The translations under genes and the position numbers were made by a program. From an uncultured Eubacterium sp. (lineage in GTDB: Bacteria > Bacillota > Clostridia > Oscillospirales > Acutalibacteraceae), in contig CAJOEV010000005.1 in the NCBI GenBank assembly GCA_905233545.1, positions 1,425 to 65,424 on the forward strand: a stretch of DNA of 64,000 nt, in the 5' to 3' direction. The notes beneath the pieces are model-generated. The model was not told the origin of the DNA and did not search any database. It saw only the letters and a list, made by a program, of their open reading frames with translations. Shown in pieces: positions 3,681 through 64,000 of this stretch (within the stretch, counting starts at the first letter, position 1; every line of letters begins with the position of its first letter).

Positions 3681-3775
3681 GAGTTTGTCCTCCGTTTTAA
3701 TTCCTATTTGTTTTGTAGGTTTTTCCGCTAAAGATACTAACATAATTATTTTGATATGTCAATGGTTTTTTATTC

Positions 3776-3962
3776 AGGTGTTAGGTGTTAGGTGTTAGGT
3801 GTTAGGTTTTAGGGGTTAGGGGGTTGGTCGCTTAGCGGCGATTATATTTTCAAGAAAGGGGTCAGACCCCTTTCTTGATTTTGTGCTGTCACTGCACCGA
3901 AATTGTAGGGGAGGCTCTCCCGAGCCTCCCACAAATTCAACACCCAACCCCTAAACCCTAAA
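3776..3962. repeat. composite heptamer-arm element (TAGGTGT/TAGGGGT arms, core, terminator-like hairpin, GTAG-REP hairpin)
   Basis: Left arm 3776..3827 is (GGTGTTA)n..GGGGTTAGGGGGTTGG. Core is TCGCTTAGCGGCGATTATA. Hairpin CAAGAAAGGGG-TCAG-ACCCCTTTCTTG follows, then GTAG+GGGAGGCTC-TCCC-GAGCCTCCC at 3905..3930. Right arm 3937..3962 is CAACACCCAACCCCTAAACCCTAAAAA. Confidence 0.8.
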
Positions 3963-7916: not shown

Positions 7917-8288
7917 ATGGAATACGTAGCAACAACTAACGCACCGAATGCAATCGGTCCTTATTCCCAGGCGGTTAAGGCAAACGGATTGCTTTTCACC
8001 TCGGGACAAATTGCAATCAACCCGAAAACAAACACCGTTGAAGCAAAAACCATTGAGGAGCAGACAACTCAGGTCTGCGAAAACCTCAAGGCAGTTGTTG
8101 AGGCGGCAGGAACATCAATGGAAAAGGTTGTTAAAACCGTTTGCTTCCTCGCCGACATAAATGACTTTAGCGCTTTCAACGAAATCTACGGCAAATATTT
8201 TGTTTCAAAGCCTGCGCGCTCCTGCGTTGCGGTCAAGGATTTGCCAAAAGGCGTTTTGTGTGAAGTGGAACTTATAGCAGAGCTTTAA
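7917..8288 (+). CDS. ridA: RidA family reactive-intermediate (enamine/imine) deaminase
   Basis: 123 aa with APNAIGPYSQAV...GQI motif. Sits downstream of ilvA. Confidence 0.9.
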   Translation: MEYVATTNAPNAIGPYSQAVKANGLLFTSGQIAINPKTNTVEAKTIEEQTTQVCENLKAVVEAAGTSMEKVVKTVCFLADINDFSAFNEIYGKYFVSKPARSCVAVKDLPKGVLCEVELIAEL

Positions 8289-8301
8289 GCTCTGCTTTTT
8301 T
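8277..8301 (+). terminator. intrinsic terminator of ridA
   Basis: GCAGAGC-TTTAA-GCTCTGC followed by TTTTTT. The stop codon lies in the loop. Confidence 0.8.
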
Positions 8302-8302
8302 A

Positions 8303-8387
8303 ATTGAGAATGGAGAATTGAGAATGGAGAATTTCGGGTCGCTTCGCTCCGCACCCCTAAAACCTAACACCTAACACCTAAAAAACC
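8303..8387. repeat. heptamer-arm element with non-matching arms (GAGAATG left, CCTAACA right)
   Basis: ATTGAGAATGGAGAATTGAGAATGGAGAAT, then core TTCGGGTCGCTTCGCTCCGC, then ACCCCTAAAACCTAACACCTAACACCTAAAAAACC. Confidence 0.75.
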
Positions 8388-8389
8388 TA

Positions 8390-8418
8390 TTGCCATAAGT
8401 CTTGTATAATGCTATAAT
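8390..8418 (+). promoter_or_regulatory. sigma-A-like promoter (TTGCCA-17-TATAAT)
   Basis: TTGCCA at 8390..8395 and TATAAT at 8413..8418 with a 17-nt spacer. It lies about 28 nt upstream of the structured element. Confidence 0.55.
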
Positions 8419-8445
8419 GTAATGTGGAATATATTGTGGTGGTAT

Positions 8446-8724
8446 TAAGCAGGCTGAATCCGAAACACAAGCGGTTTTCAGATGCATATTTCCCTTTATA
8501 CTTCACAAAATTTCTTGAAAGACGCAAGTCTTCCTTCAAAATCTTGTTTCGCCTAAAAGAAAATCTGCTATCTGAAAACTGCTGCGCATTTCTCAGCCAG
8601 TCATTTTTTAGATAGTTTCGTCGTTAATCGACGAAGTTTTACCGGCGTAAATCGAGGAGATTATGGCGAAAATATCAGGAAAGGACGGCTGAGAAACGAT
8701 TGGATTTCGGGTTCAGCCTGCTTA
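8446..8724 (+). ncRNA. structured repeated element, copy 1 (unclassified; 5' leader of rlmB)
   Basis: 20-bp terminal helix TAAGCAGGCTGAATCCGAAA / TTTCGGGTTCAGCCTGCTTA. Internal helices are CGGTTTTCAGAT/ATCTGAAAACTG and TTCTCAGCC/GGCTGAGAA, plus hairpin TTTCGTCG-TTAA-TCGACGAA. Homologous to 63494..63715 on the other strand. Confidence 0.7.
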
Positions 8725-8727
8725 TTT

Positions 8728-9483
8728 ATGAAAAATGAAAATATAAAGAATAACGATAATTTAATAATCGGCAGAAATGCGGTGCTTGAACTTCTCAAAA
8801 GCGGACGCGAAATTGAAAATGTTCTTGTTGCCAAGGGCGAAAGAGAGGGCTCGATTAACCATATTCTTTCGCTTTGCAGGGAGAAAAAGATTGTTGTGAA
8901 AACCGTTGACAGAAGAAAGCTCGATTCGCTTTGTGCAGGCGCAAATCATCAGGGTGTTGCGGCAAATGTTCCCTCCCATGAATATTCGAGCGTTGATGAT
9001 ATTCTTGCTCTTGCCGAAGAAAAAGGCGAGCCCCCATTCATAATCATCTGCGACGAGATTGAGGACAGCCACAATTTAGGCGCAATAATAAGAACTGCCG
9101 AAGCGTGCGGAGCGCACGGAATAATTATTCCCAAAAGGCGCAATGTCGGGCTGAATTTTGTTGTTGCAAAAACAAGCTGCGGCGCGCTTGAATATATGAA
9201 GGTTGCAAGAGTCGGCAACCTTGCACAGACGATTGACGATTTGAAAAAGAAAAACATCTGGGTTTATGCCGCCGATATGGACGGACAGCGCTGGGACAAA
9301 ACCGATTTTTCGGGCGGTGCGGCGCTTGTTGTCGGAAGTGAGGGCAGCGGAGTGGGCAGGCTGATAAAAGAAAAATGCGATGTTACCGTTTCGCTTCCGA
9401 TGCTCGGCAAGGTCAATTCCCTCAACGCTTCCGTTGCAGCAGGAATAATTATGTACGAAATTGCGAGACAGCGGTTGGATTAG
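8728..9483 (+). CDS. rlmB: 23S rRNA (guanosine-2'-O)-methyltransferase RlmB (SpoU/TrmH family)
   Basis: 251 aa with IIGRNAVLELLKSG N-terminal domain and a SpoU C-terminal part (LVVGSEGSGV...SLNASVAAGI). Confidence 0.85.
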   Translation: MKNENIKNNDNLIIGRNAVLELLKSGREIENVLVAKGEREGSINHILSLCREKKIVVKTVDRRKLDSLCAGANHQGVAANVPSHEYSSVDDILALAEEKGEPPFIIICDEIEDSHNLGAIIRTAEACGAHGIIIPKRRNVGLNFVVAKTSCGALEYMKVARVGNLAQTIDDLKKKNIWVYAADMDGQRWDKTDFSGGAALVVGSEGSGVGRLIKEKCDVTVSLPMLGKVNSLNASVAAGIIMYEIARQRLD

Positions 9484-9524
9484 GTGTTAGGTGTTAGGTG
9501 TTAGTGTGGCGATTCAGAATCGCC
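9481..9524. repeat. heptamer array (TAGGTGT x3.5) + GGCGATTC-AGA-ATCGCC hairpin
   Basis: TAGGTGTTAGGTGTTAGGTGTTAGTGTGGCGATTCAGAATCGCC. The first TAG is the rlmB stop codon. Confidence 0.75.
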
Positions 9525-9543: not shown

Positions 9544-12087
9544 ATGAGTGAAAATTTATCAATTGAAGAAATAATTGCAAAAGCCGAAGAAATCAAGGCG
9601 CAGGCTGAAAAACAGCTAAAAAGCGCCGAGCAAAAGCTCGATGAACAGGCTAAGGCTGCAATTGACGAGGTTGTTGTTGACGAAAAAGCCGTTGTCGACA
9701 AGATAACAAGGGCTTTTGAGCGCATTGAAGAGGAAGAAACAGTTAAAGAGTTCATACCTTCAAAGGATAAGAAAACAAAAACGGTTACTCTTCCGAATGA
9801 TGATGACATTAAAATCGCTGAGCCCGTTGTCAGCAGTGATAAAACAATAACTGTCAACATTAAGGAAAACGACAGCGACACAAAGATTGCAGAGCCCGCT
9901 GTCAACAGCGACAAAACAATAACCGTTAACATTAAGGAAAACGACGACGATACAAAGATTGCAAAGCCCGTTGTCAACAGCGAAAAAACAATAACTGTTA
10001 ACATTAAGGAAACCGACGATGATACAAAGATTGCCGATCCCGTCGGTGATGACGAAAAAACAAAGCAGATTGCATTTGTTTCAAAGGCAAAGCACAATAA
10101 GGAGAGCGACCTTCACGAAATTCCGACAATTGTTGCAAAGGAAAACCTTATTGACGGATTTGATGTTGCTCCCGAGGGTGATTTTGTTCCCGAAACGGGC
10201 GACCAGATAACCTTTGAGGGCTTTGATGACGAAATCGAAGAGGTCCCGACGATTGACGAGGATGTTGCCGAGCAGATTCTTGAGGAGCGCAGGCGCGAAA
10301 AAGTTGTAAAATTCCGTTTGTTCGGTCCCGATGAAACGGATTTGAAGCTCGGAAACGACAACGAAATTGAAGAGGAATATGTTTCTCGAAACGAAACAAA
10401 CGAATTCTTAAGAAATCTGCTTGCAAGCAGAAGGGCTCAGAAGCTCCGCACAATATTAACGGGAGTTATTGAAATATTCCTCATTCTTCTGACCGTATTT
10501 AAAAACAGCGGCAGGCTTCATCCCGACTTTTTGAACAGTCCGACTCCGTTTTTTATTACGGCAATAATTCTTTATGTCGGCGCTCTTGCAATCAATTTCA
10601 ATTCGATTGTTCAGGGATTCAGAATCAAAAAACATATCAATTTTGATTTTTGCACCAATATAATCTGCATTGCGGTGCTCGTTCACACTGTGGCAATGCT
10701 GTTTAATAACTTCCTTTGGATTGATAACGGCATACTGTTTGCCGCATTCGGCTGTTTTGCGCTTCTGATGTCGTCGCTCGGCAAATCAAAAATGCTCAGC
10801 CGTACCATTGATAACTTCAAATTTGTAACCTCGTCAAGCAATAATTTCACACTTGAAAATGTTGCAAACGATATCGACGCCGAACGAATCTGCCGCGGAC
10901 TTGTTGAGGGCGAGGCAAACGTGATAACAAGTGTTCAGACTGATTTCCCGACGAACTTCCTTGAAATTTCATATAAAAACGAGCCCGCAAACAAGATTTC
11001 AAGAAAAATTCTTCCGATTTCCATTGTCCTGAATCTGATATTGTTTGTTGTTGTCGGCTTCCTCGATAATTTCAACACGGCATTCAATATGCTGATGTGC
11101 GGACTCTGTGTTTCGCTTCCCTGCTGCGGATTGTTTTTAACAAATTCAACCCTCTGCGATGTGAGCAGTGCGCTTAATGAATACGGCGCAAGAGTTTGCG
11201 GATACGAGGGTGCGGCTATGGCGTACAGCGCAAACACAATGGTTATGGAGGCAAGCGACCTCTTCGGCAAAAACAGCTGTGAAATGCACGGAATCAAGAC
11301 CTTTGACAATGCAAAGGTTGACGACGCAATCATTCATGCTGCGGCGGTTATGACCCAGACAAAAAGTCCGCTTGCCCATGTTTTTGATGATGTTATCATC
11401 GGCAAGCAATCAATTCTTCCGAGGGTTGACAAGATAAGCTATGAGGATAAACAGGGCACTTCGGGCTGGATTTATAACAAAAAAGTTCTTGTCGGAAACC
11501 GCACAATGCTGAAAAATCACGGCGTTCCCGTTCCGAGTGAGAGCTTTGAGAAAAAGCATTCAATAAGAGGAAGAAAGGTGCTTTATCTTTCAATCGATTC
11601 AAAGCTTACGGCAATGTTTGTTGTCAGCTACTCAGCCGAGCCGAATCTTAAAAGAGAGCTGAGAAAGCTTGAAAAAAGCGGAATCACAATTCTTGTTAAA
11701 AGCACCGACCCGTATATCAACGAAGAGAGCATGGCAAAGCTTTTCTCGCTTCCGAAGGGCTTTATAAGAGTTCTTAATTCTTCCTCCGCAATGGTTTATG
11801 AAAAGTATTCTAATATGCATGTTGACAAATCTCCCGCATATGTTGTTCACAACGGAACAGCGCTCGGCTTTGTTTCGGCAATGCGTGCTTCGGAAGTTAT
11901 TATCAGCCAGAGAAAGCTCATTTCCTTCCTCTCGCTCTTTGGCTCTGCGCTCGGGTTCGGCGTTGTTGCTCTTCTTGCAATACTCGGCGCATATACCCAG
12001 CTTTCGGCAGTCAGCATAATTATTTTCCAGCTGATATGGAACGCATTTGTTCTTGCAATATCCAAAATCAGAGGTATCAGCTTATAA
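9544..12087 (+). CDS. P-type-ATPase-like membrane protein lacking the DKTGT phosphorylation motif, with a long repeat-containing acidic N-terminus
   Basis: 847 aa. The C-terminal half resembles P1B-ATPase TM/HAD regions (SLPCCG in a TM segment; ...NTMVMEASDLFGKN... where DKTGT is expected; LYLSIDSKLTAMFVVSYSAEPNLKRELRKLEKSGITILV). Confidence 0.55.
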   Translation: MSENLSIEEIIAKAEEIKAQAEKQLKSAEQKLDEQAKAAIDEVVVDEKAVVDKITRAFERIEEEETVKEFIPSKDKKTKTVTLPNDDDIKIAEPVVSSDKTITVNIKENDSDTKIAEPAVNSDKTITVNIKENDDDTKIAKPVVNSEKTITVNIKETDDDTKIADPVGDDEKTKQIAFVSKAKHNKESDLHEIPTIVAKENLIDGFDVAPEGDFVPETGDQITFEGFDDEIEEVPTIDEDVAEQILEERRREKVVKFRLFGPDETDLKLGNDNEIEEEYVSRNETNEFLRNLLASRRAQKLRTILTGVIEIFLILLTVFKNSGRLHPDFLNSPTPFFITAIILYVGALAINFNSIVQGFRIKKHINFDFCTNIICIAVLVHTVAMLFNNFLWIDNGILFAAFGCFALLMSSLGKSKMLSRTIDNFKFVTSSSNNFTLENVANDIDAERICRGLVEGEANVITSVQTDFPTNFLEISYKNEPANKISRKILPISIVLNLILFVVVGFLDNFNTAFNMLMCGLCVSLPCCGLFLTNSTLCDVSSALNEYGARVCGYEGAAMAYSANTMVMEASDLFGKNSCEMHGIKTFDNAKVDDAIIHAAAVMTQTKSPLAHVFDDVIIGKQSILPRVDKISYEDKQGTSGWIYNKKVLVGNRTMLKNHGVPVPSESFEKKHSIRGRKVLYLSIDSKLTAMFVVSYSAEPNLKRELRKLEKSGITILVKSTDPYINEESMAKLFSLPKGFIRVLNSSSAMVYEKYSNMHVDKSPAYVVHNGTALGFVSAMRASEVIISQRKLISFLSLFGSALGFGVVALLAILGAYTQLSAVSIIIFQLIWNAFVLAISKIRGISL
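9799..10066 (+). repeat. 72-bp in-frame tandem repeat x3.7 (24-aa unit DDDTKIAEPVVNSDKTITVNIKEN)
   Basis: Units start at 9799, 9871, 9943 and 10015 (the last is partial). Confidence 0.85.
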
Positions 12088-12153
12088 ATGCAAAGTGCAA
12101 AATGCATAATGCAAAATGACCTAAAACCTAACACCTAACACCTAAAACCTAAA
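12087..12153. repeat. two abutting heptamer arrays without core (AATGCAA-type then CCTAACA-type)
   Basis: AATGCAAAGTGCAAAATGCATAATGCAAAATG + ACCTAAAACCTAACACCTAACACCTAAAACCTAAA. It spans the gap between two convergent stop codons. Confidence 0.7.
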
Positions 12154-12847
12154 TATCATACTCATCATTGAACATTGCTTCATATTCAAGTTTTTTGATG
12201 TCAAAGCTCGGTTTGCAGGACAGTTTATTTCTGTCAGCATTCTGAGCTTTTTCTTTTTCTCTTTTCCTGCTCCAGCTCAGAAGCGTTGCATAGTGAGAAG
12301 CATAGTCCTTGCCCGTTGAGGCAATATATGTTGAAAGCTCGTCTATCAGATAAATAAGTCCCAGATTTTTGAGCTTTTCATATTCTTCATCTGATAAAAT
12401 TATATTTTCAAAATCTCCATATTTCTTGTTTGTCTTATCATTCTTATCATTATTATCATTCTTATCATTATTGTTTGTCGTTAGCTCTGCGTTATCACTG
12501 CGTTGATACTGCGTTAACGGTGCGTTAGAAATGATTTCAGTTTCCTGATAAGTGCAGTAATTAAGCAGTTTTATCCGCGAATAGCGGTGCGTTGAAATTA
12601 TTGAAATTTCGCCAGAGCTTTCAAGCTTTTTTAATGCCGTTCTGACTTGCTGATATGTTATCCCAAGTTCCTCTGCAAGCCTATATGCCGAGGTCACCCG
12701 TTCCCCCGTTCCGACTTCAATGCCCTTCCATCTTTTCGGCATGTGATTCACCGTTAAAAGAAGGTGCAAAAATACCGCCTTGACATTGTTATCCTGGTAC
12801 CATTCCCAATTTACCATTTTTCTGTGTAGCTTAATCCAGCCGTCCAT
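12149..12847 (-). CDS. phage/plasmid-type replication-organizer-like protein (N-terminal wHTH, C-terminal DnaD-like domain)
   Basis: MDGWIKLHRKMVNWEWYQDNNVKAVFLHLLL... is typical of Firmicute phage replication proteins. The C-terminus YASHYATLLSWSRKR is DnaD-like. It has a low-complexity NNDKNDNNDKNDK linker. Confidence 0.55.
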   Translation of the reverse strand: MDGWIKLHRKMVNWEWYQDNNVKAVFLHLLLTVNHMPKRWKGIEVGTGERVTSAYRLAEELGITYQQVRTALKKLESSGEISIISTHRYSRIKLLNYCTYQETEIISNAPLTQYQRSDNAELTTNNNDKNDNNDKNDKTNKKYGDFENIILSDEEYEKLKNLGLIYLIDELSTYIASTGKDYASHYATLLSWSRKREKEKAQNADRNKLSCKPSFDIKKLEYEAMFNDEYDI

Positions 12848-13043: not shown

Positions 13044-13131
13044 GGGAGGGTCGGGAGACCCTCCCCTACAATTTTTAATTGTCCGGGTAAAGCGAGAAAC
13101 CAAAAACTCGCAACTCGGAGCTCGCAACTTT
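13044..13131. repeat. REP hairpin with CTAC tail + half module (core + GAGTTGC-type arm)
   Basis: GGGAGGGTC-GGGA-GACCCTCCC-CTAC, then ACAATTTTTAATTGT, then CCGGGTAAAGCGAGAAACC, then AAAAACTCGCAACTCGGAGCTCGCAACTTT. It ends at the GH95 stop codon. Confidence 0.8.
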
Positions 13132-15229
13132 AAAAGACTTCTTCTTTAATAATCTTTCCGTTTTCAAACTCAAGATTAAGCGTTTTATTTCCGTAGAGCT
13201 TGATTCCCTTAACATATCCGCTCCAGTTTTTCGGAACACATCTTCTCTTAAACATCTCGGCAATGCCTGCTGCAACGCCGAAGTTTCCGTCAATCTGGAA
13301 GGGCGGATGAGCGTCGAACATATTGGGATAGCTTCCGCCGTGCCTGTATCCCACGCCCTCGGTAAATATCGGATACAGCTGATTTTTAATAAGAGTCATT
13401 GCATTTTCGGGATTATCCAGCCTTGCCCAGAGGCAAACCTTCCAGCCGAGCGACCAGCCCGTACCTCCGAAGCCTCTTGCATAGAGTGACGCTCTTGTTG
13501 CCTCTCTGATTTCCTCGCTCTGCTGAACGGCGGAGGGATAAACGCAGTAAAGATGGCTGACATGGCGGTGTTCGGGCTCTTTTTCCTCGTACTCCTTAAT
13601 CCACTCGTTGATTCTTCCGTCGCTTCCAATCGGAATGGGCGGAATTTCGGGTGTTTCAAATCCGAAGGCTCTGCAGTTTTCGAAGAATTCTTCAAGTATT
13701 CCGATATCCATTGTCGGCATATATGTAAGGCAAGCCCTTGTTCCGTTGTCAATAAAGGTGTTTTCGGGTGATGAACTCGGACAGGTTACATTAACGCCGT
13801 CCTTTTCAACAAGATAATCGTTGTAGAAATCAAGCACCTCTTTGAAACATGGCTTCATTTCTTCAAAAAGCGCCTTGTCCTCGGTATATCTGTAGTGTTC
13901 AAAAACCTGGTTGAGCATCCACGGAAGTGAACTGTTCCAATATGCGTAGCTCTCGGCGTGCGCTTTTCCGAGCGGGTCGCCTGCAGGACAGCTTGCTCCC
14001 CAGATATCGCTGTTATGATGTGCAACCGAGCCCGAGCAGTTATAGTAGTCCTTTGCGGTAACTCTTCCGTTTTCAATCATATGCTTAACCTGCTCGAAGA
14101 ACGGGCTGAAGCATTCCGAAAGATTGCAGATATCGGTGCACCAATAGTTCATTTCGGTGTTGATGTTCGTTGTGTAGTTCGATGACCAGGGCGCTCTGAG
14201 ATGTTCGTTGAAAATTCCCTGGAGGTTTGTTGCCTGAGTACCCTCTCGCGAGGAGGCAATGGTTAAATATCTTCCGTACTGGAACAGAAGTGCGGCAAGA
14301 TTGTTGTCCTTGTTTGGATGTTTTTGAAAACGCCTGATTCTTCTGTCCGTCGGAAGCTCTGTTTCCTCGCTGCCCAAATCGATTTCAACTCTGTTAAACA
14401 GCGAAGAATGGTCGGCAATATGCTCTTTGAGCATTTCACCGTAGTTTTTCGCATTTGAAAGATACGAAAGTGCGCGCGCTTTTGCGTCCGCTGTGGGCAT
14501 TGATTTATAATCAACAAAGCTTGTTGCAAGAGAAACGAAAATTGTTGTCTCTTCCTGCGAATTAATCAATATGCGGTCCTTTACGAACTCAGCGTTTCCG
14601 ACAACTCTTACGGCTGCACAGCAATTCATTGCGTTTTTTCCGTAATCGAAAACAACGCCGGTGTTATAATAAGGAGGCATACAAATTTCGGGAGCACGCC
14701 CCTCCATAAAGAGCGTTCTTTCGTCACAGTAAACCTTGTGCTTGAGCTGGCTCTTAAATCTGATTTTAAGAGATACATCCTCTTTGCACTTTATGTTAAT
14801 AACAAGAAGCTGGGCGGGATGGCTTACAAAAACAGTCTGACAAACAGCGTCATTCTCTGTTTTTGAAACGCCTGTTTCAAGGTCGAGTTCCCTTGTGTAG
14901 CCCTGCGCCTTTGCGCCTTCGTAGTCAATAATCAAATCCCCGAAAGGAAGATATGCTTCGCTCCAGTGACCGTGAAATTCAGTGTTTGCAATGCGGTTTG
15001 CTTCGTCGTGGTCCTCGTGAAATATCGCTGTTCTGAGCGCTTCGAGGTATTCGCCCGCGTCCTTTTTGTTGTGGTCCTTCGGATATCCCGACCAAAGGGA
15101 GTCCTCGTTAAGAGCAATTCTCTCCCTTTTAAGATTTCCGAAAACCATTGCGCCGATTCTGCCGTTGCCGACGGGCAGCGCTTCTTCCCATCTGATTGCT
15201 CTTCTCTTGTACCAAAGCTTGTTCTGCAT
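13130..15229 (-). CDS. glycoside hydrolase family 95 (alpha-L-fucosidase-like)
   Basis: MQNKLWYKRRAIRWEEALPVGNGRIGAMVFGN...NEDSLWSG is a GH95 N-terminal signature. Start at ATG 15229, preceded by GGGAGGTGG. Confidence 0.85.
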   Translation of the reverse strand: MQNKLWYKRRAIRWEEALPVGNGRIGAMVFGNLKRERIALNEDSLWSGYPKDHNKKDAGEYLEALRTAIFHEDHDEANRIANTEFHGHWSEAYLPFGDLIIDYEGAKAQGYTRELDLETGVSKTENDAVCQTVFVSHPAQLLVINIKCKEDVSLKIRFKSQLKHKVYCDERTLFMEGRAPEICMPPYYNTGVVFDYGKNAMNCCAAVRVVGNAEFVKDRILINSQEETTIFVSLATSFVDYKSMPTADAKARALSYLSNAKNYGEMLKEHIADHSSLFNRVEIDLGSEETELPTDRRIRRFQKHPNKDNNLAALLFQYGRYLTIASSREGTQATNLQGIFNEHLRAPWSSNYTTNINTEMNYWCTDICNLSECFSPFFEQVKHMIENGRVTAKDYYNCSGSVAHHNSDIWGASCPAGDPLGKAHAESYAYWNSSLPWMLNQVFEHYRYTEDKALFEEMKPCFKEVLDFYNDYLVEKDGVNVTCPSSSPENTFIDNGTRACLTYMPTMDIGILEEFFENCRAFGFETPEIPPIPIGSDGRINEWIKEYEEKEPEHRHVSHLYCVYPSAVQQSEEIREATRASLYARGFGGTGWSLGWKVCLWARLDNPENAMTLIKNQLYPIFTEGVGYRHGGSYPNMFDAHPPFQIDGNFGVAAGIAEMFKRRCVPKNWSGYVKGIKLYGNKTLNLEFENGKIIKEEVF

Positions 15230-18432: not shown

Positions 18433-18496
18433 TTGCTCACCTCATTGTCAATTTTCTCTATTATACACTATAAATATTGCTTTATCAAGCAATATT

Positions 18497-18528
18497 TTAG
18501 GTATTAGGTGTTAGGTTTTAGGTTTTAG
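18497..18528. repeat. isolated heptamer array (TAGGTNT x4.5)
   Basis: TTAGGTATTAGGTGTTAGGTTTTAGGTTTTAG, 10 nt from a parS site. Confidence 0.65.
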
Positions 18529-18538
18529 TTAATATAAA

Positions 18539-22250: not shown

Positions 22251-22270
22251 ACTTAACCTCTAATTTATTT

Positions 22271-22328
22271 GTTCGAGCGAAGCGAGTAACCGAAAACTCG
22301 GAACTCGGGGCTCGAAACTCGCAACTTT
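22271..22328. repeat. half module in the mnmE-mnmG junction (core + GAGTTNC arm)
   Basis: GTTCGAGCGAAGCGAGTAACC + GAAAACTCGGAACTCGGGGCTCGAAACTCGCAACTTTT. It ends at the mnmE stop. Confidence 0.75.
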
Positions 22329-23712: not shown

Positions 23713-23796
23713 CCGTGCGCAGCACCCGACAACTCGGAACTCGGGGCTCGCAACTCGCAACTTATTAATGGCGAACGCCAACCGTCCGCCATTAAT
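23713..23796. repeat. half module in the jag-mnmE junction (core GTGCGCAGCACCCG + GAGTTNC arm + ATTAATGGCG palindrome)
   Basis: CCGTGCGCAGCACCCG + ACAACTCGGAACTCGGGGCTCGCAACTCGCAACTT + ATTAATGGCG...CGCCATTAAT. Confidence 0.7.
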
Positions 23797-28206: not shown

Positions 28207-28250
28207 AGGGCGATTCTAAAATCGCCCCTACATCCTAACACCTAACACCT
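28207..28250. repeat. REP-like hairpin with CTAC tail + CCTAACA array
   Basis: GGGCGATT-CTAA-AATCGCCC-CTAC at 28208..28231, then ATCCTAACACCTAACACCT. It fills the gap between two convergent stops. Confidence 0.75.
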
Positions 28251-28892
28251 TTATTCAGGAATGTATGTGTGAAGGTCTTCCATAATAAGACTTTCTGCCT
28301 CTTCAATAAGCTCGTTTAGAACCGTTCTCTGTGATGAGTCAACGCCCGTTCTTGAACGGTCCTCAATCAAAACGAATTTTGCATCCTGGATTGCAATTGC
28401 CGCGGAAGCTAAATCCTTGGCAACGGAATAATCGATTTTAAACAGCTCTTTGGGAATAATGCCCGCTTTTGCAAGAGTCAGCGCACCGCGGTAGAGAGTT
28501 AAAAGATAGTAGTCGTATACAAAACTCTTCTCGGCAGTGTCCGATGAGCTTGCGGAAACAGTATCAAGAAGATATTTTGTTGCCTTTGAGAGCATTGAAA
28601 CGGAATACATCTTGTCGCTTGAAAACGCTGTGAGATAGTTATCGTCAATACCGTTTCTGTTTTCGCTGACACCGAGAAGGTAATCGGTTGTAACACCGTA
28701 GTATTCACTGCATCTGATAATAAAATCAAGTCCGCATTCCCTTATACCTTTTTCGTAGTGCGAAAGAAGAGCCTGGGAAATTCCAAGCTCGGTAGCTGCC
28801 TTTTTCTGGCTTATTCCGCGTTCCTTTCTCAGCTGGGAAAGGACGGACGCAAATTTGGTAATCTTTTCTTTGTTCTTTTCCATTAATGTCAC
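28251..28892 (-). CDS. XRE-family helix-turn-helix transcriptional regulator
   Basis: LSQLRKERGISQKKAATELGISQALLSHYEKG HTH motif. 213 aa. Confidence 0.8.
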   Translation of the reverse strand: MTLMEKNKEKITKFASVLSQLRKERGISQKKAATELGISQALLSHYEKGIRECGLDFIIRCSEYYGVTTDYLLGVSENRNGIDDNYLTAFSSDKMYSVSMLSKATKYLLDTVSASSSDTAEKSFVYDYYLLTLYRGALTLAKAGIIPKELFKIDYSVAKDLASAAIAIQDAKFVLIEDRSRTGVDSSQRTVLNELIEEAESLIMEDLHTYIPE

Positions 28893-30222: not shown

Positions 30223-30251
30223 GCAGACGGAAAATTCCGTCTGCTTTTTTT
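30223..30251 (+). terminator. intrinsic terminator
   Basis: GCAGACGG-AAAATT-CCGTCTGC followed by TTTTTTT. Confidence 0.8.
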
Positions 30252-30690
30252 ATGCATAATATTCATCCTTGCCGATTAGCCATTTTCTTGGGTTTTCATC
30301 AATGTATTGAAGATGATAAAAATAATCTTCGTCGTCGCGGATAATGTGGTCGTAGAATCCCGTTTGCCATATGTTTTCACCGATTTGTTTATTGCAAAAT
30401 CGTTTTAATGTTCCAATATGCCTTGAAAGAAGTGAATTTGTAGGGAGCGGCGACCTCGACGCTCCATTGGTATCCGTTTTCTCAACCGAAACAATCAAAT
30501 GAATGTGATTCGGCATTATCACATATTTTTCAAATTTTATTTCTTCGTATCTTTTGTTCATCTCGATGATGTTGTTCTCAACAATTATGCCGTTTTTTGA
30601 TAAAACAATTTGCGGAGCGTCGGGGTCGCCGCTCCCTACAATAAAAAACGGGCGATTCGCGAATCGCTCCCACTGCCTAAAACCTAACAC
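30250..30690 (-). CDS. REP-associated tyrosine transposase (RAYT, IS200-like HUH), probably N-terminally truncated
   Basis: HUH motif in VIMPNHIHLIVSV. C-terminus is WQTGFYDHIIRDDEDYFYHLQYIDENPRKW. It lacks the YDYS..YFITICT N-terminal strand present in the paralog at 58958..59449. The N-terminal 17 aa are read from repeat sequence. Confidence 0.75.
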   Translation of the reverse strand: MLGFRQWERFANRPFFIVGSGDPDAPQIVLSKNGIIVENNIIEMNKRYEEIKFEKYVIMPNHIHLIVSVEKTDTNGASRSPLPTNSLLSRHIGTLKRFCNKQIGENIWQTGFYDHIIRDDEDYFYHLQYIDENPRKWLIGKDEYYA

Positions 30691-30712
30691 CTAAAACCTA
30701 ACACCTAAAAAA
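30614..30712. repeat. REP hairpin (CTAC tail) + GGGCGATTCGCGAATCGCTCCC hairpin + CCTAAAA/CCTAACA array
   Basis: GGAGCG-TCGGGGTCGC-CGCTCC-CTACAAT, then GGGCGATTCGCGAATCGCTCCC, then ACTGCCTAAAACCTAACACCTAAAACCTAACACCTAAAAAAA. It overlaps the 5' end of the RAYT ORF. Confidence 0.8.
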
Positions 30713-30736
30713 AACTGCCTCAAATGAGGCAGTTTT
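30707..30736 (-). terminator. intrinsic terminator after the LCP gene
   Basis: CTGCCTCA-AA-TGAGGCAG flanked by A/T runs. Confidence 0.75.
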
Positions 30737-35020: not shown

Positions 35021-35145
35021 AGTTGCGCGTTACGAGTTTCGCGTTGCGCGTTTTCGGTTTCTCGGCTTTGCCTCGTTCAATTATTATTGTCTGAGCGCAG
35101 CGAGTAACCAACAACTCGGAGCTCGGGGCTTGCAATTCGAAACTT
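35021..35145. repeat. heptamer-arm element, full copy A (GAGTTGC-type arms, palindromic double core)
   Basis: AGTTGCGCGTTACGAGTTTCGCGTTGCGCG, then TTTTCGGTTTCTCGGCTTTGCCTCGTTCAATTATTATTGTCTGAGCGCAGCGAGTAACC, then AACAACTCGGAGCTCGGGGCTTGCAATTCGAAACTT. Confidence 0.85.
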
Positions 35146-46424: not shown

Positions 46425-46600
46425 AAATGAAATATTGATATACAATATGAAATAATTTGCTAAAGAAAATTGTGAAATATCTCGTTTTGCTCGATATGAA
46501 ATAAAATTAATCCATTATACGCCGCAGGCGTATTTCATTGCAAAGCAATTTCATATTCTGAAAGAATATTTCATTAATCCGCAAGGATTAATTTAATTGG
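46425..46600. repeat. probable heptamer-arm element (ATGAAAT-type arms, TCGTTTTGCTCGAT core, small palindromes)
   Basis: TGAAAT/ATTTCA units occur on both sides. The centre carries TACGCC-GCA-GGCGTA and ATTAATCC-GCAA-GGATTAAT. Confidence 0.5.
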
Positions 46601-47582: not shown

Positions 47583-47650
47583 AATAGTACCCTCCTAATA
47601 ATTAATACTTATATATTATACAACATTATATATGGTAATGCAATAAAAAA

Positions 47651-47707
47651 GTTGAGAGTTCCGAGTCCCGAGTTGCAAGTTTTCGCATCGTTTTGCTCCG
47701 ATTATAT
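47651..47707. repeat. half module (GAGTTCC/GAGTTGC arm + core TTTCGCATCGTTTTGCTCCGATTATA)
   Basis: GTTGAGAGTTCCGAGTCCCGAGTTGCAAG + TTTTCGCATCGTTTTGCTCCGATTATA. It ends at the ribU stop. Confidence 0.7.
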
Positions 47708-48325: not shown

Positions 48326-48566
48326 GCAAAAAGAGAACCCCGACAGTTTCTGTCGGGGTGATATTGTTTTAACAATATGATTTCTCTCGTCCGGACTTAT
48401 GATTTTCATCAATTACCGTCGGTTACGGAATTCCACCGTATCAGTCCTAAAAATTGTATCAATTTTTTGGAGTCGCAGACTTTTACTGCCGGTGAGGAAT
48501 AGGCATTCGATTACATTTTTTGTTACACAATATGTAGTTGAACGCTGCACCTCGCCCCGAAATATT
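48326..48566 (-). ncRNA. FMN riboswitch (RFN element) with terminator expression platform
   Basis: The minus strand carries CACCGGCAGTAAAAGTCTGCGAC, GGTGGAATTCCGTAACCGACGGTAA and AGTCCGGACGAGAGAA. The terminator is CCCCGACAG-AAA-CTGTCGGGG followed by TTCTCTTTTT (48326..48359). Confidence 0.85.
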
Positions 48567-48840
48567 TTGTGTTTTTGGTGCTTTTATTATAGCAAAAACC
48601 CCGATTTTGTCAATTTTTGTATTACATAATTAAATAAGTGTAATACAAAATACCCATTTTTATACACATAATTCGAAAATTGTCTATTAAACTATATTGA
48701 AATTTGACAACACCGATTAAATCTGTTATAAACTTAGCCGTTGCGAAGATATTACAAATTTGTAACAAAAAAACCAAAAAGGAGTAATTGTTATTAGTAT
48801 CAAAGTTAAAGCAGTTTCCGTTGTTCTTGCTGCAGCGTTC

Positions 48841-58885: not shown

Positions 58886-58957
58886 CTCTCCTTAAGGGGA
58901 AGGCAATATATACAAACAGCAGCACCACAAATCCGTGATGCTGCTTTGTATTTTTCT

Positions 58958-59449
58958 TTATGAATAGTATTCGTCTTTGCCCATTATCCACTTTTTTGGG
59001 TTTTCTTCAATATACTGAATATGATATAAATAATCTTCTTCGTTTCTGATAATGTGGTCGTAGTATGAGCGCTGCCAGAGTGTTGAGCCATATTTATGTG
59101 TTGTATATGACTTTATGTCTCTGATGATGTCCTGTAGGGGAGGGTTTCCGCGCCCTCCCATCATAGGTTTGCAGATTGAGACTAACAAATGAATATGATT
59201 AGGCATAATAATGTGTTTTTCAATACATATATTTTTAAACCTTGAATTTGTATATTCGATTGATTTCTGAACCTCAAGACCAATATCGGAAAGTTCTATT
59301 TTGGGGAGGGCGCGGAGACCCTCCCCTACATTTTTTACGGAAGAGAGAACACATTTCATATCCTCAGTACATATAGTTATGAAATATTTTCCGTTTGAGG
59401 AATAATCATAATCCTTCAACCTTGTAGGTTTTCGGTCTTTCTTTTCCAT
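58958..59449 (-). CDS. REP-associated tyrosine transposase (RAYT, IS200-like HUH), full length
   Basis: LKDYDYSSNGKYFITICT N-terminal strand. HUH motif in IIMPNHIHLLVSI. C-terminus WQRSYYDHIIRNEEDYLYHIQYIEENPKKW. Confidence 0.85.
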   Translation of the reverse strand: MEKKDRKPTRLKDYDYSSNGKYFITICTEDMKCVLSSVKNVGEGLRALPKIELSDIGLEVQKSIEYTNSRFKNICIEKHIIMPNHIHLLVSICKPMMGGRGNPPLQDIIRDIKSYTTHKYGSTLWQRSYYDHIIRNEEDYLYHIQYIEENPKKWIMGKDEYYS

Positions 59450-60852: not shown

Positions 60853-62417
60853 AGTATTTCCTCCAGTATATCGTTAATTTGTTCATTTATATTCTGCCCG
60901 TTATTGTAAATAACATAATCACTGTTTTCAATATAATAATCATCAGAAAACTGGGCGTTTATTCTCTGCATCGCCTGCTCGGTTGATATAACATCTCTGC
61001 CGATTATTCTTGAAAGCCTTGTTTCAAGCGGAGCGCTTACGCAGATTATTTTATAGCATTCCTTATCAGCATTAGCCTCAAAAAGCTGGGGCGCGTCCAA
61101 AACGCAGGGAATTTCGCTTTGCTTTTTGCACTCCTCAATAATTACAGGGTGCATAATTTTATTCAAAATTGCGGTGTTTTTCTTGTTTTTAAAGGCTCTT
61201 TCTGCAAGAAGCTTTCGGTTAAGCTCACCGTTTTCAAGAATATCTTTACCGAATGCATTTTTAAGCTCAGTGAGCAGGGGAGAGCCCTTTTCAGTGAGCT
61301 TTTTTGCGATTATATCGCTGTCAATAATCTTGAAACCGCGCTTTTCTAGTTCTTCGCAGACATAGGTTTTTCCTGCGCCCGTCGGTCCCGTAAGACCGAT
61401 TGTGAAGGGCTTGTTCAAATCTATAACATTGAACGCAGCCGCGCGGATAAGCCTGTTGAAAACAGCCGTTCCGACACCGTCTTTATTCGGAATTCTTGCA
61501 TAAACCTTTTGCGCGCCGAGCTCGTCAAGCTCGCGGAGCTTGTCGAAAAGGAGCTTTGCCTGGCTTAAATCGTCGTTTTCCTTTCCGAATGTTACCTTCG
61601 GAACGGTTATGTTATCCTCTTCAAAGCAGAGCGCAAATGCGCCCTTTTTTGAATTGACAAATTTTTCATAGCCTTCCCTGTCAGCGTCAACAACAATAAT
61701 CTTCGCTTTCGGGGAATAGTGCTTGTATTTCATACCCGGGGAGGCGGCTTTTTCGCCCTCTTCCATTTCGCCGAGAACGGCTTTTGCAAGCTCGGTTTCG
61801 CCGATAACGCCTTCAATCATTTCCTTTGTTATCGCACCCGGTCGAAGAATAACGGGAGTTTTCTCAGCAAGGGTTATAACCGTTGATTCAACGCCGAATT
61901 CACAGTCTCCGCCGTCAACAATCGCGTCGATTTTTCCCATCATATCGCTGATAACATGGGACGCTTTTGTGGGCGAGGGAAGTCCGCTTGTGTTTGCGCT
62001 CGGAGCAGCAACGGGAACGCCTGCAGCCTCAATAACGGCTCTTGCAACCTCGTTTTTCGGCATACGGAAGGCAACTGTATCAAGTCCTCCGCTCACCGTA
62101 TCGCCGACAAGAGCACTCTTTTTAAGAATTATTGTCAGCGGAGCGGGGAAAAATGCGTCAATAAGGCGCTGTGCTTTTTCGGGAATTGTTTCAACAAGCT
62201 GATTTATATCCTCTTTTTTTGCAATGTGAACAATCAGCGGATTGTCGCTCGGTCTGCCCTTTGCACGGTAAATGCTTTTAACCGCCTCATCATCAAGGGC
62301 GTTTGCGCCGAGTCCGTAAACCGTTTCAGTCGGAAATGCAACAAGACCGCCGTTTTTGATTATTTCACCTGCAAGCCCGATATCCTGTTTTGAAGTTGAA
62401 AGTATTTTTGTTTTCAT
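60849..62417 (-). CDS. fusion protein: L-threonylcarbamoyladenylate synthase (Sua5/YwlC type) + dephospho-CoA kinase
   Basis: The N-terminal ~340 aa carry GGLVAFPTETVYGLGANA...KGRPSDNPLIVHI plus the Sua5 domain. The C-terminal ~185 aa carry IGLTGPTGAGKT and ...IMHPVIIEE... (CoaE). Confidence 0.8.
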   Translation of the reverse strand: MKTKILSTSKQDIGLAGEIIKNGGLVAFPTETVYGLGANALDDEAVKSIYRAKGRPSDNPLIVHIAKKEDINQLVETIPEKAQRLIDAFFPAPLTIILKKSALVGDTVSGGLDTVAFRMPKNEVARAVIEAAGVPVAAPSANTSGLPSPTKASHVISDMMGKIDAIVDGGDCEFGVESTVITLAEKTPVILRPGAITKEMIEGVIGETELAKAVLGEMEEGEKAASPGMKYKHYSPKAKIIVVDADREGYEKFVNSKKGAFALCFEEDNITVPKVTFGKENDDLSQAKLLFDKLRELDELGAQKVYARIPNKDGVGTAVFNRLIRAAAFNVIDLNKPFTIGLTGPTGAGKTYVCEELEKRGFKIIDSDIIAKKLTEKGSPLLTELKNAFGKDILENGELNRKLLAERAFKNKKNTAILNKIMHPVIIEECKKQSEIPCVLDAPQLFEANADKECYKIICVSAPLETRLSRIIGRDVISTEQAMQRINAQFSDDYYIENSDYVIYNNGQNINEQINDILEEIL

Positions 62418-63490
62418 TATTCTTCGCTTGCCTTGAGCTTTTCGGCTGTGTCGGCGGTGATTAAAGCGTCAATCAGCTCGTCGAGGTCACCGTTTAATAT
62501 CTGCTCAAGCTTATATAATGTCAGATTGATTCTGTGGTCGGAAACTCTGCCCTGGGGATAGTTATATGTTCTTATTCTTTCGCTTCTGTCGCCCGTTCCG
62601 ACCTGGGCTTTTCTTTCGCCTGCAATCTCGGCGTCGTGCTTTGCCTTTTCGGCGTCATAGAGCCTTGCGCGAAGCACCTTCATTGCCTTTTCCTTGTTTT
62701 TGTGCTGGCTTCTTTCGTCCTGGCATTCAACAACCGTTCCTGTTGGAATATGGGTTATTCTGATTGCGGACGAGGTCTTGTTTATGTGCTGACCGCCTGC
62801 ACCGCTTGAACGGAAGGTGTCGATTTCAAGGTCTTTTTCGTTGAGTTCAAAATCAACATCATCCGCCTCGGGAAGCACTGCAACGGTTGTTGTTGAGGTG
62901 TGAATTCTTCCCTGGCTTTCAGTTTCGGGAACACGCTGAACTCTGTGAACGCCCGATTCAAATTTGAAGCGCGAATATGCGCCGTCGCCGTTGACGGAAA
63001 AGCTGACTTCCTTAAATCCGCCGAGTCCCGTTTCGCTTGCGGAAAGAAGCTCGCATTTGAAGCCCTTTGCCTCGGCGTACATATTATACATTCTATATAA
63101 AACGCCTGCGAAAAGGGCGCTTTCCTCTCCGCCTGCACCGCCGCGGATTTCGATAATAACGTTTCTGTCATCGTTGGGGTCACGCGGAAGAAGAAGGATT
63201 TTCAGCTCCTCGCTGATTTTTTCCATATCCTCTTTGCTCTGCTCAAATTCCTCTTTTACCATCTGGGCAAAATCGGAATCAAGAGAGCCGTCACCAAGCA
63301 TTTCCTTTGATTCCTCATAGGTGTCCTTTGCTCTTTTATATTCTCTGAATTTTTCAACAACGGGGGTGAGCTGTTTCAACTCTTTCATAAGCTTTGTATA
63401 TTGCTCCATATCGGCAATAATTTCGCTTTTGCATACAAGCTCGTTTACCTCGTTATATTTTTTTTCAACTTGTTCTAATTTATCAAACAT
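62417..63490 (-). CDS. prfA: peptide chain release factor 1
   Basis: 357 aa starting [15 protein letters not shown], with the [13 protein letters not shown] motif. Confidence 0.97.
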
Positions 63491-63493
63491 AAC

Positions 63494-63715
63494 TAAGCAG
63501 CCTAAAACCGAAACATAATCGTTTCTCAGCCGTCCTTTCTTGATATTTTCGCCGTAATCTTCTCGATTTACGACAGTAAAACTTCGTCGCTTACGACGAA
63601 ACTATCTAATAAACTACTGGCTGAGAAATGCACAGCAGTTTTTAGATACCAGAAATTTACAAATGCAAAAGAATATGCCTCTAAAAACCGATTAGTTTCG
63701 GTTTCAGACTGCTTA
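63494..63715 (-). ncRNA. structured repeated element, copy 2 (fills the DUF951-prfA intercistronic gap)
   Basis: On the minus strand TAAGCAGTCTGAAACCGAAAC pairs with GTTTCGGTTTTAGGCTGCTTA. It aligns with 8446..8724 except for a roughly 55-nt shorter sub-domain. Confidence 0.7.
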
Positions 63716-63889
63716 TTCCTTTATTGCTTTAATGTTTTTTTCAATTTTATTTCGTGCAACCATAACCTCGCGGCTGCATTTGGTACATCTGATTTTGAAA
63801 TCCGCGCCGATTCGCAAAACCTCAAATTCGTTGTTTTTGCAGGGATGGGGCTTTTTCATAATCAGAATATCGCCGACTTTAACATCCAT
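63713..63889 (-). CDS. DUF951 family small protein
   Basis: Own translation gives MDVKVGDILIMKKPHPCKNNEFEVLRIGADFKIRCTKCSREVMVARNKIEKNIKAIKE. It is below the ORF-track cut-off. RBS is GAGGAAG. Confidence 0.8.
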   Translation of the reverse strand: MDVKVGDILIMKKPHPCKNNEFEVLRIGADFKIRCTKCSREVMVARNKIEKNIKAIKE

Positions 63890-64000
63890 TTTCTTTTTCT
63901 TCCTCTGTGCAGTCTGATATCAATCAATATTATAACACCAACTTTTGCCATTATCAACATAATTAGTATTTTTAAATCATAGTTATTTAATATAAATTTA

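Follow-up and report, generated by a model that had tools for sequence, protein, structure and literature searches.

A low-copy foldback element that appears to split the ribosome-binding sites of rlmB and prfA in a narrow Oscillospiraceae clade

Directly before the start codons of two translation genes, rlmB and prfA, the same long and foldable segment is found in a stretch of 64,000 nucleotides (nt) of contig CAJOEV010000005.1 from an uncultured Eubacterium sp. (GenBank assembly GCA_905233545.1; the whole stretch is hereafter called the window). The question raised by this locus is what kind of element this is, and what it may do so close to the site where ribosomes load. A preceding interpretation of the letters (here referred to as the sequence-only reading) offered two answers, namely, a new cis-acting or processed RNA and a transcribed MITE (miniature inverted-repeat transposable element), and each of these turned out to be right in part. 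The answer that is tentatively favored in this study is that of a low-copy, MITE-type foldback insert that may have been kept as a structured leader domain, with its closing helix (P1) holding the ribosome-loading site by the AUG.

Copy 1 occupies positions 8446..8724 on the plus strand (279 nt), upstream of rlmB (8728..9483, plus strand), which encodes a SpoU-type 23S rRNA methyltransferase (Pfam PF08032 and PF00588; homologues are named RlmB). Copy 2 is found at 63494..63715 on the minus strand (222 nt), upstream of prfA (62417..63490, minus strand), which encodes peptide chain release factor 1. Both copies are delimited by alignment and fold, and they are homologous over their whole length, as had been claimed from the letters: the end-to-end alignment runs from TAAGCAG to CTGCTTA, similarity ends exactly at these termini, and the difference of approximately 55 nt between the copies takes the form of a 55-column gap in copy 2 that lies within one arm (P2). 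The shared orientation toward the next gene and the offset of 3 nt from its ATG (at 8728 and 63490) were likewise borne out. In a scan of both copies against Rfam 15, no family reached its gathering score, and at E-values up to 10 only plant microRNA and long non-coding RNA models were returned, with 15-26 bits versus cut-offs of 58-119; this agrees with the sequence-only reading, in which no known RNA had been recognized. A search for tRNA and tmRNA with ARAGORN found nothing. No annotation covers the element, and the ribosome-binding sites of rlmB and prfA will be misjudged by gene callers.

The element is an insertion, since relatives keep the rlmB promoter and ribosome-binding site, or the junction between prfA and the preceding DUF951 gene, without it. 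The rlmB promoter, TTGCCA-17-TATAAT at 8390..8418 (plus strand), had been placed just upstream of copy 1 before, and this was confirmed (11/12 positions, with a TG preceding the -10 box). Two contigs, L085 and L086, carry the RlmB that is closest in the protein collection (P0001, 97% identity); in both of them this promoter is conserved and the element is absent, and their empty allele has the form GGTGGT-8 nt-ATG and reads ...GGAATATATTGTGGTGGTTAAAAACTATG (GGTGGTTAAAAACTATG in L085). Short rlmB leaders without an insert are also found in the more distant L087, L089, and L102. In the window, the native Shine-Dalgarno (SD)-like GGTGG of rlmB (8438..8442, plus strand) is now located 3 nt 5' of the element. 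Judged from these sequences, the element splits the ribosome-binding site and occupies the former spacer between the SD and the ATG. The earlier proposal that the ribosome-binding region lies inside the 3' strand of the terminal helix was not upheld, as the empty sites place the SD 5' of the element. Further upstream, the gene that precedes rlmB ends in a terminator at 8276-8296. A mini-ORF of nine codons (8422-8448, ATG...TAA) has the first TAA of copy 1 as its stop codon; its start codon precedes the predicted transcription start, and the mini-ORF was set aside as a candidate because it is probably not part of the transcript.

At prfA, the element is present in the window (identical in L095), in L097-L099, in L001 (the Oscillospiraceae metagenome-assembled genome (MAG) SIG609), and in L113. 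It is absent from L096, L100-L107, L108-L111, and L112, which represent four lineages and have 3-13 nt from the DUF951 stop to the ATG. The empty sites have the layout stop-(A)AAGGA-spacer-ATG (e.g., TAATAAGGATTAAATTATG and TAAAAAGGAATTAACTATG), and the L112 site, AAAGGAAT-TA-ACTATG, keeps the stop, SD, and spacer layout of the other empty lineages. Side by side, L112 reads AAAGGAATTAACTATG and L097 reads AAAGGAA[TAAGCAG...CTGCTTA]ACTATG. In the window, the DUF951 gene (63713..63889, minus strand; PF06107 in relatives) ends in a TAA stop (63713-63715) that forms the first 3 nt of copy 2, and in both copy 2 and L097 an AAGGAA is left 1 nt 5' of the element. Copy 1, copy 2, and L097 all have an SD-like motif (GGTGG or AAGGAA) at a distance of 1-3 nt on the 5' side of P1. 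In three lineages in which the C-terminus of DUF951 differs, its stop is 0-3 nt away from the base of P1, and the gap from P1 to the ATG is 3 nt in all occupied alleles (TTT, GTT, or ACT). The DUF951-prfA operon promoter, TTGATA-17-TATAAT (63929..63957, minus strand), is kept across lineages in the alignment. Given the promoters at 8390-8418 and 63957-63929 (minus strand), both copies lie inside predicted transcription units.

A TA is present at both ends and had been taken as a sign of a MITE, but target duplication cannot be shown, since the TA is also part of a TAA/TTA palindrome and filled alleles differ from empty ones by 1-10 additional nt. The empty L096 site, TAAGGATTAA, was considered as a possible excision footprint; it mismatches the expected ends. 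Import by homologous recombination together with the flanks was rejected: the adjacent flanks are as diverged as elsewhere, with no imported tract.

Selection on the element was assessed by comparing identities among the window, L001, and L097, with the four-fold sites of the adjacent prfA as the neutral standard. The prfA coding sequence is approximately 90% identical at the nucleotide level and its four-fold degenerate sites have identities of 0.66-0.71, whereas the element core (190 columns) is 96.8-98.4% identical, with 3-6 differences (binomial P < 1e-19 versus the four-fold rate). The P2 tip (30-32 columns) is 60-75% identical, which is indistinguishable from neutral. The same pattern is visible along the alignment, where the core and the DUF951 promoter are near-invariant, in contrast to a scrambled P2 tip and DUF951 5' leader. 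The core changes about ten times more slowly than neutral sites, which makes it probable that the element now has a function, most likely in RNA. In L113 and L001, which belong to the same species and have flanks that are 98.2% identical, the element is identical, tip included. A tip at the neutral rate, a conserved core, and an identical tip within a species are what vertical descent with a selected core and a drifting tip predicts, and a decaying MITE is excluded. Between copy 1 and the prfA copies, the core divergence is 10-12%. Five pairs have changed on both sides and yet remain paired (alignment columns 8/272, 14/266, 23/257, 34/129, and 41/121), a number reached in 2/500 shuffles; all five are single events between two paralogues. 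Conservation above the neutral level and pairs kept through two-sided changes, both of which are looked for in a structured RNA, were found.

A coding explanation for this conservation was considered and rejected: a hidden small protein is not indicated, as the open frames have no start codons and the substitutions are mostly non-synonymous. The frame of the downstream gene is open for 36-56 codons back into the element (8625-8727 and 63491-63601) without an ATG, GTG, or TTG, probably by chance. The prfA copies also contain a short AUGUUUCGG... frame in the P1 3' strand (e.g., 63512-63498 in the window) that copy 1 lacks; in L001 and L097 this frame stops 2 nt before the prfA ATG.

Both copies are predicted to fold far better than expected from their composition. 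The minimum free energy of copy 1 is -112.1 kcal/mol (z = -9.2) and that of copy 2 is -88.6 kcal/mol (z = -10.2), and for neither copy was any of 200 dinucleotide shuffles as good. The RNAalifold consensus of the four distinct copies is a three-way junction. P1 closes the domain by 27 pairs (alignment columns 1-28 with 252-279), so that the terminal helix of 20-21 bp described earlier is present and extends further. Its 5' strand, the left terminal inverted repeat, is located at 8446..8473 in copy 1 (plus strand; repeat search and consensus fold) and at 63689..63715 in copy 2 (minus strand; consensus fold), and its 3' strand, the right terminal inverted repeat, at 8697..8724 and 63494..63521, respectively, ending in each case 3 nt before the ATG. 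P2 (columns 29-41 with 121-134) carries the variable tip. In copy 1 this arm spans 8474..8579 and includes the 55 columns that the prfA copies lack (alignment and covariance model); in copy 2 it is shortened to 63638..63688, with the tip of approximately 30 nt that evolves at the neutral rate. The helix CGGTTTTCAGAT/ATCTGAAAACTG was recovered together with its change from C-G to U-A on both sides (columns 34/129), and the helix TTCTCAGCC/GGCTGAGAA is likewise present and is invariant. A central mini-hairpin (columns 135-143; consensus fold), TGCTGCGCA at 8580..8588 in copy 1, is centered on the palindrome TGCGCA and forms the dyad center. It is followed by the long and irregular P3 arm (columns 144-251), which is the most conserved part and is found at 8589..8696 in copy 1 (plus strand) and at 63522..63628 in copy 2 (minus strand; consensus fold and covariance model). 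In its distal part two exclusive folds are predicted, in which UUUCGUCG pairs either with CGACGAAG, giving a local hairpin, or with CGGCGAAA, giving an extended fold with a stability advantage of 3-8 kcal/mol in all four sequences. The hairpin TTTCGTCG-loop-CGACGAA of the sequence-only reading can accordingly form, but it competes with the more stable long-range pairing to CGGCGAAA. When the full rlmB leader is folded, the element persists as an autonomous domain, with an unpaired GGUGG immediately on its 5' side and the AUG 3 nt beyond its 3' end.

The element is also a dyad over its whole length. On the minus strand, a covariance model built from P3 has a hit of 54.7 bits at 8468-8588, which corresponds to the full-length P2 arm of copy 1; this arm is a diverged version of the P3 arm, duplicated in inverted orientation over its full length. 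An nhmmer profile of the element aligns along its entire length with the reverse complement of copy 1 itself. From these matches on the opposite strand it follows that inverted termini and two related hairpin arms together make up a whole-length dyad, of which the prfA copies have a truncated P2 arm. With regard to strand, copy 1 gives an equally good fold as sense and as antisense, and for the prfA copies the sense RNA is favored by 10-20 kcal/mol. It had been claimed that all imperfect pairs of the terminal helices are G-U in the strand of the downstream gene, which was taken to argue for selection on the RNA in that orientation. The first part holds for the two copies in the window, but the relatives' orthologous copies also carry A.C mismatches; over all copies there are eight G-U positions and two A.C (one-sided p = 0.055), so that the second part is suggestive at most.

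The element has several, but not all, features of a MITE. It is 222-279 nt long, well within the approximate limit of 500 bp for such elements, and has no conserved ORF, its inverted termini (AGCAGKCTGAAWCCGAAAC) span 21-28 nt, and filled and empty sites are found among relatives at both rlmB and prfA, but there are not many dispersed copies per genome. Genomes contain one or two copies, with two in the 64-kb window, and both independent copies face the downstream gene, which differs from the many randomly placed copies by which a plain MITE was to be recognized. An invariant 20-mer has one true locus (L001, SIG609) among 185,579 species genomes, with one genome per species; its matches in L002 and L003 were dismissed as chance. 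In Joint Genome Institute (JGI) metagenomes, an 18-mer gave six chance matches (including L007, inside a coding region) and no true copy, and in IMG/VR two 16-mers and an inverted-repeat pattern gave chance matches or none. BLAST of plasmids and phages returned nothing relevant. No further copy was found by the nhmmer profile in 1.08 Mb or by the covariance model in 285 kb of fetched DNA, and there was no extra inverted-repeat match in the fetched DNA. By exact look-up, neither the RlmB nor the DUF951 protein of the window is on record. The element was thus found solely in a single, narrow clade of gut or rumen Oscillospiraceae, the members of which are labelled Eubacterium sp., Ruminococcaceae MAGs, or Oscillospiraceae MAGs. 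A partner insertion sequence (IS) with matching inverted repeats was found neither in the fetched loci nor in IMG/VR, plasmids, or phages. A derivation from IS630/Tc1-mariner was considered as well: TA is seen at both termini, its duplication is not demonstrable, and no partner transposase was found there. An IS is present at L095 1-1671, approximately 1.3-2.6 kb past the right end of the window, where it encodes a DDE_Tnp_1 transposase of 492 amino acids (aa) and adjoins an S1-domain gene. Its inverted repeats are perfect 17-bp repeats, CAATGTCATTAAGTTAA, which are unrelated to the termini of the element, and it was therefore ruled out as parent.

According to the favored reading, prfA and, in a separate event, rlmB would each have received the insert in the short spacer that parts the ribosome-loading signal from the start codon, and the insert would be transcribed within the mRNA. 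The RNA would fold into the self-contained three-way junction, and its 27-pair P1 would clamp the two flanks together, so as to put the upstream SD a few nt from the AUG in rlmB, and the DUF951 stop codon a few nt from the AUG in prfA. If the end of the helix is counted as approximately 3 nt, the path from SD to AUG is approximately 9 nt for rlmB, as compared with 9 nt in the empty allele, and approximately 7 nt for prfA in the window and in L097, as compared with 7 nt in L112. Translation of the downstream gene would then depend on correct folding of the element, and that of prfA also on ribosomes arriving from DUF951, which would open the outer half of P1 and expose the AUG. As the stop lies 0-3 nt from the P1 base, a terminating ribosome must have melted the outer part of P1, by which translational coupling would be preserved. 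A clamp of this type may explain both the fixed offset of 3 nt and the selection on folding: a misfolded element would leave the gene without access to its ribosome-loading site, which would put the core under purifying selection, and the P2 tip would be dispensable and hence drift. Bridging, coupling, and any regulatory input are what we infer here. A bolder version, which is considered doubtful, is that a transposon-derived RNA module was domesticated as a translational bridge that passes ribosomes from the SD, or from the terminating ribosome, to the AUG, and that its conserved arm may sense a translation-related signal.

A number of observations weigh against a clamped leader. The proposed mechanism is argued from geometry, and the strand bias is weak, given the eight G-U versus two A.C positions and a copy 1 antisense that folds equally well. 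The left flank of L001 and L113, AAAGAAAATTGA, has no SD-like sequence, so bridging to an SD is not general and coupling to DUF951 termination must be invoked. A closed P1 fails to explain the near-invariant loops and bulges of P3, which leaves room for a bound factor, and a perfect-type P1 of 27 pairs is a likely substrate of RNase III, by which the flanks would be parted and not bridged. The stems of the orthologous copies are invariant and do not covary, which is expected at this shallow depth and gives no independent proof of structure, and the known material comprises four distinct sequences from two independent loci. The phylogeny is a further difficulty. A tree of prfA and the next gene is star-like, with approximately 15% divergence, except for L097 (occupied) and L112 (empty), which pair as sisters with a bootstrap of 1.0, a divergence of 6.5%, and a four-fold identity of 0.79. 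The occupied lineages do not form a resolved clade, as filled and empty prfA alleles are scattered over lineages, and with the empty L112 as sister of L097, vertical descent needs at least one precise loss. Precise loss of a long, TA-flanked palindrome is plausible through slippage at hairpins; otherwise, repeated site-specific gains would have to be assumed.

In a different account, the element is a selfish MITE that is, or was until recently, moved in trans by a transposase and prefers AT-rich spacers before start codons, its core being kept for mobility and by recent spread between lineages, with incidental effects on the host. RNase III cleaves transcribed Correia repeats (PMC10969869, PMC2649163), and cutting of this kind would be one such effect. 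The terminal inverted repeats, the whole-length dyad, the TA at both ends, and the patchy occupancy with an empty sister lineage would all fit, as would stems that are invariant among orthologues, and the ancestral layout of L112 is easier to explain as a site that was never occupied than as one that was vacated in a sister of L097. However, no autonomous partner or further copy was found in the 1.08 Mb of fetched DNA, the 185,579 species genomes, JGI, IMG/VR, plasmids, or phages, the paralogues are 10-12% diverged with no sign of recent activity, and the flanks contain no imported tract. Spread between lineages also sits poorly with a tip whose divergence equals the neutral divergence of the host and which is identical within a species, as vertical descent predicts, and three independent insertions at the same base would be needed. 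This account is regarded as rather improbable. A role at the DNA level, as cruciform, protein-binding site, or outward promoter, would draw on the same dyad, on the equally stable antisense of copy 1, and on weak promoter-like hexamers inside copy 1, but scans gave no support for an internal terminator or an outward promoter, and there is no good promoter near the 3' end. The excess of G-U over A.C positions in the sense strand, the better folding of the prfA copies as sense RNA, and the location of both copies within transcription units in a single orientation all speak against it, and this role is judged very improbable.

If the function is in RNA, the clamp has two competitors. The element may be a leader that senses a ligand or protein on behalf of translation genes, with the P3 arm and the junction binding the factor and the AUG-abutting P1 serving as the expression platform. 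Such a leader would account for a core that is as strongly conserved as the nearby promoter, loops and internal loops included, for two mutually exclusive distal P3 folds that lie 3-8 kcal/mol apart in all four sequences, for the same orientation and 3-nt offset in both copies, and for downstream genes that both act on the peptidyl-transferase center and termination. Riboswitch P1 helices are typically a few base pairs long, and a P1 of 27 pairs would be far too stable to switch. Moreover, the element is confined to two loci in one narrow clade whose close relatives do well without it, it has no match in Rfam, and the orthologous copies are too little diverged for covariation; sensing is considered unlikely. 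Slightly less likely still is a processed, stable small RNA, for which RNase III would cut P1 and free the core as a trans-acting or protein-binding RNA, leaving the mRNA with a short leader devoid of structure. With more than two helical turns, P1 would qualify as an RNase III substrate, by length only; relatives encode RNase III-family proteins (L085, PF00636), and the conservation of the core hints at more than a spacer role. The exact distance of 3 nt to the AUG would, however, be unexplained, and the 10-12% divergence of the core of the rlmB copy is unexpected for one trans-acting species.

Transcribed palindromic repeats are usually viewed as junk that sometimes perturbs neighboring genes, and the filled and empty alleles of two essential-pathway genes in close relatives offer a natural experiment in this respect, in which filled alleles kept the core nearly unchanged while silent sites changed by approximately 30%. 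If bridging and coupling are true, ribosome-binding sites would tolerate, and then depend on, a large folded domain between SD and AUG, and the element would be a clean case of a mobile element turned leader RNA. A domesticated bridge would represent a new class of cis-acting element for release factor 1 and a 23S rRNA methyltransferase. Should the element be selfish after all, it would point to a transposon that targets start-codon spacers.

Other repeats and RNAs are present in the window. Short tandem heptamer arrays (CCTAACA/TGTTAGG) are found in intergenic regions at 3767-3826, 8301-8385, 9480-9511, 12101-12155, 18496-18533, 28208-28254, and 30657-30714, where they adjoin a GC-rich motif, GGGTCGCTTCGCTCCG or GAGCGAAGCGAGTAACCGAAA; inverted arrays (8350-8381 versus 9480-9511) bracket the rlmB unit. 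The arrays of relatives (L085 9745-9935, L096 14130-14300) keep this layout with another unit (AATTACG/CGTAATT and others). A second array family, of the GAGTTGC/AACTCGG type, has the same GC-rich companion motif and is located at 428-485, 13095-13137, 22269-22327, 23721-23763, 35021-35145, and 47650-47685. Downstream of rlmB, three tandem 72-nt repeats (76-82% identical) lie at 9796-10063, inside an ORF of 847 aa (9544-12087), and a 114-nt direct repeat (83% identical) is found at 30245-30358 and 58953-59066. Two known RNAs score above their Rfam gathering thresholds, namely, an FMN riboswitch at 48375-48568 (minus strand, 70.8 bits) and a Gut-1 RNA at 46527-46599 (minus strand, 63.4 bits).

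With regard to known systems, a parallel in geometry is found in phage T4, where the ribosome-binding sites of genes 38 and 25 are split and closed by a hairpin of approximately 20 nt that is not mobile. In a similar way, a stable structure between SD and AUG may give a working distance in the present element, where the flanks of the helix are 3 + 3 nt (rlmB) or 1 + 3 nt (prfA), as compared with 9 and 7 nt in the empty alleles. Unlike the T4 hairpin, the intervening domain is 220-280 nt long and of the transposon type. With respect to origin and placement, the ERIC/IRU repeats of Enterobacteria, which were reportedly found next to start codons with effects on the transcript by De Gregorio and colleagues, provide another parallel. 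Overall, the element behaves most like transcribed palindromic repeats of the ERIC and Correia types (PMC10969869, PMC2649163, PMC3184786). ERIC/IRU repeats are imperfect palindromes of 127 bp that are co-transcribed with genes (PMC10969869, PMC3184786). Like the element, they are whole-length imperfect palindromes that fold as RNA, lie in transcribed intergenic DNA, and show presence/absence polymorphism, and they can adjoin start codons and affect the transcript (PMC10969869, PMC3184786). Unlike them, the element has no sequence relation to ERIC, resides in another host phylum, is twice as long, forms a three-way junction and not one hairpin, has 1-2 copies per genome versus tens to hundreds, and has orthologous copies under strong purifying selection.

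The Correia repeats of Neisseria (CREE, NEMIS) share with the element terminal inverted repeats of approximately 26 bp, a TA at the ends, transcription together with neighboring genes, and a long terminal duplex as a potential target of RNase III (PMC2649163, PMC10969869). The element differs in that it is not high-copy, no integration host factor (IHF) site or outward promoter was found in it, and a TA duplication is not demonstrable. Lastly, Neisseria REP2 and the Bacillus cereus group C 'bcr' repeats are located just upstream of genes or at fixed genomic positions, and some are thought to act as RNA (PMC3184786). The element resembles them in being placed immediately upstream of genes or conserved at fixed positions (PMC3184786), whereas REP2 has its own promoter, ribosome-binding site, and ATG and no terminal inverted repeats, for which the element is the reverse. 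Among these systems, the element is best classed as a low-copy, selectively maintained foldback insert inside ribosome-binding sites.

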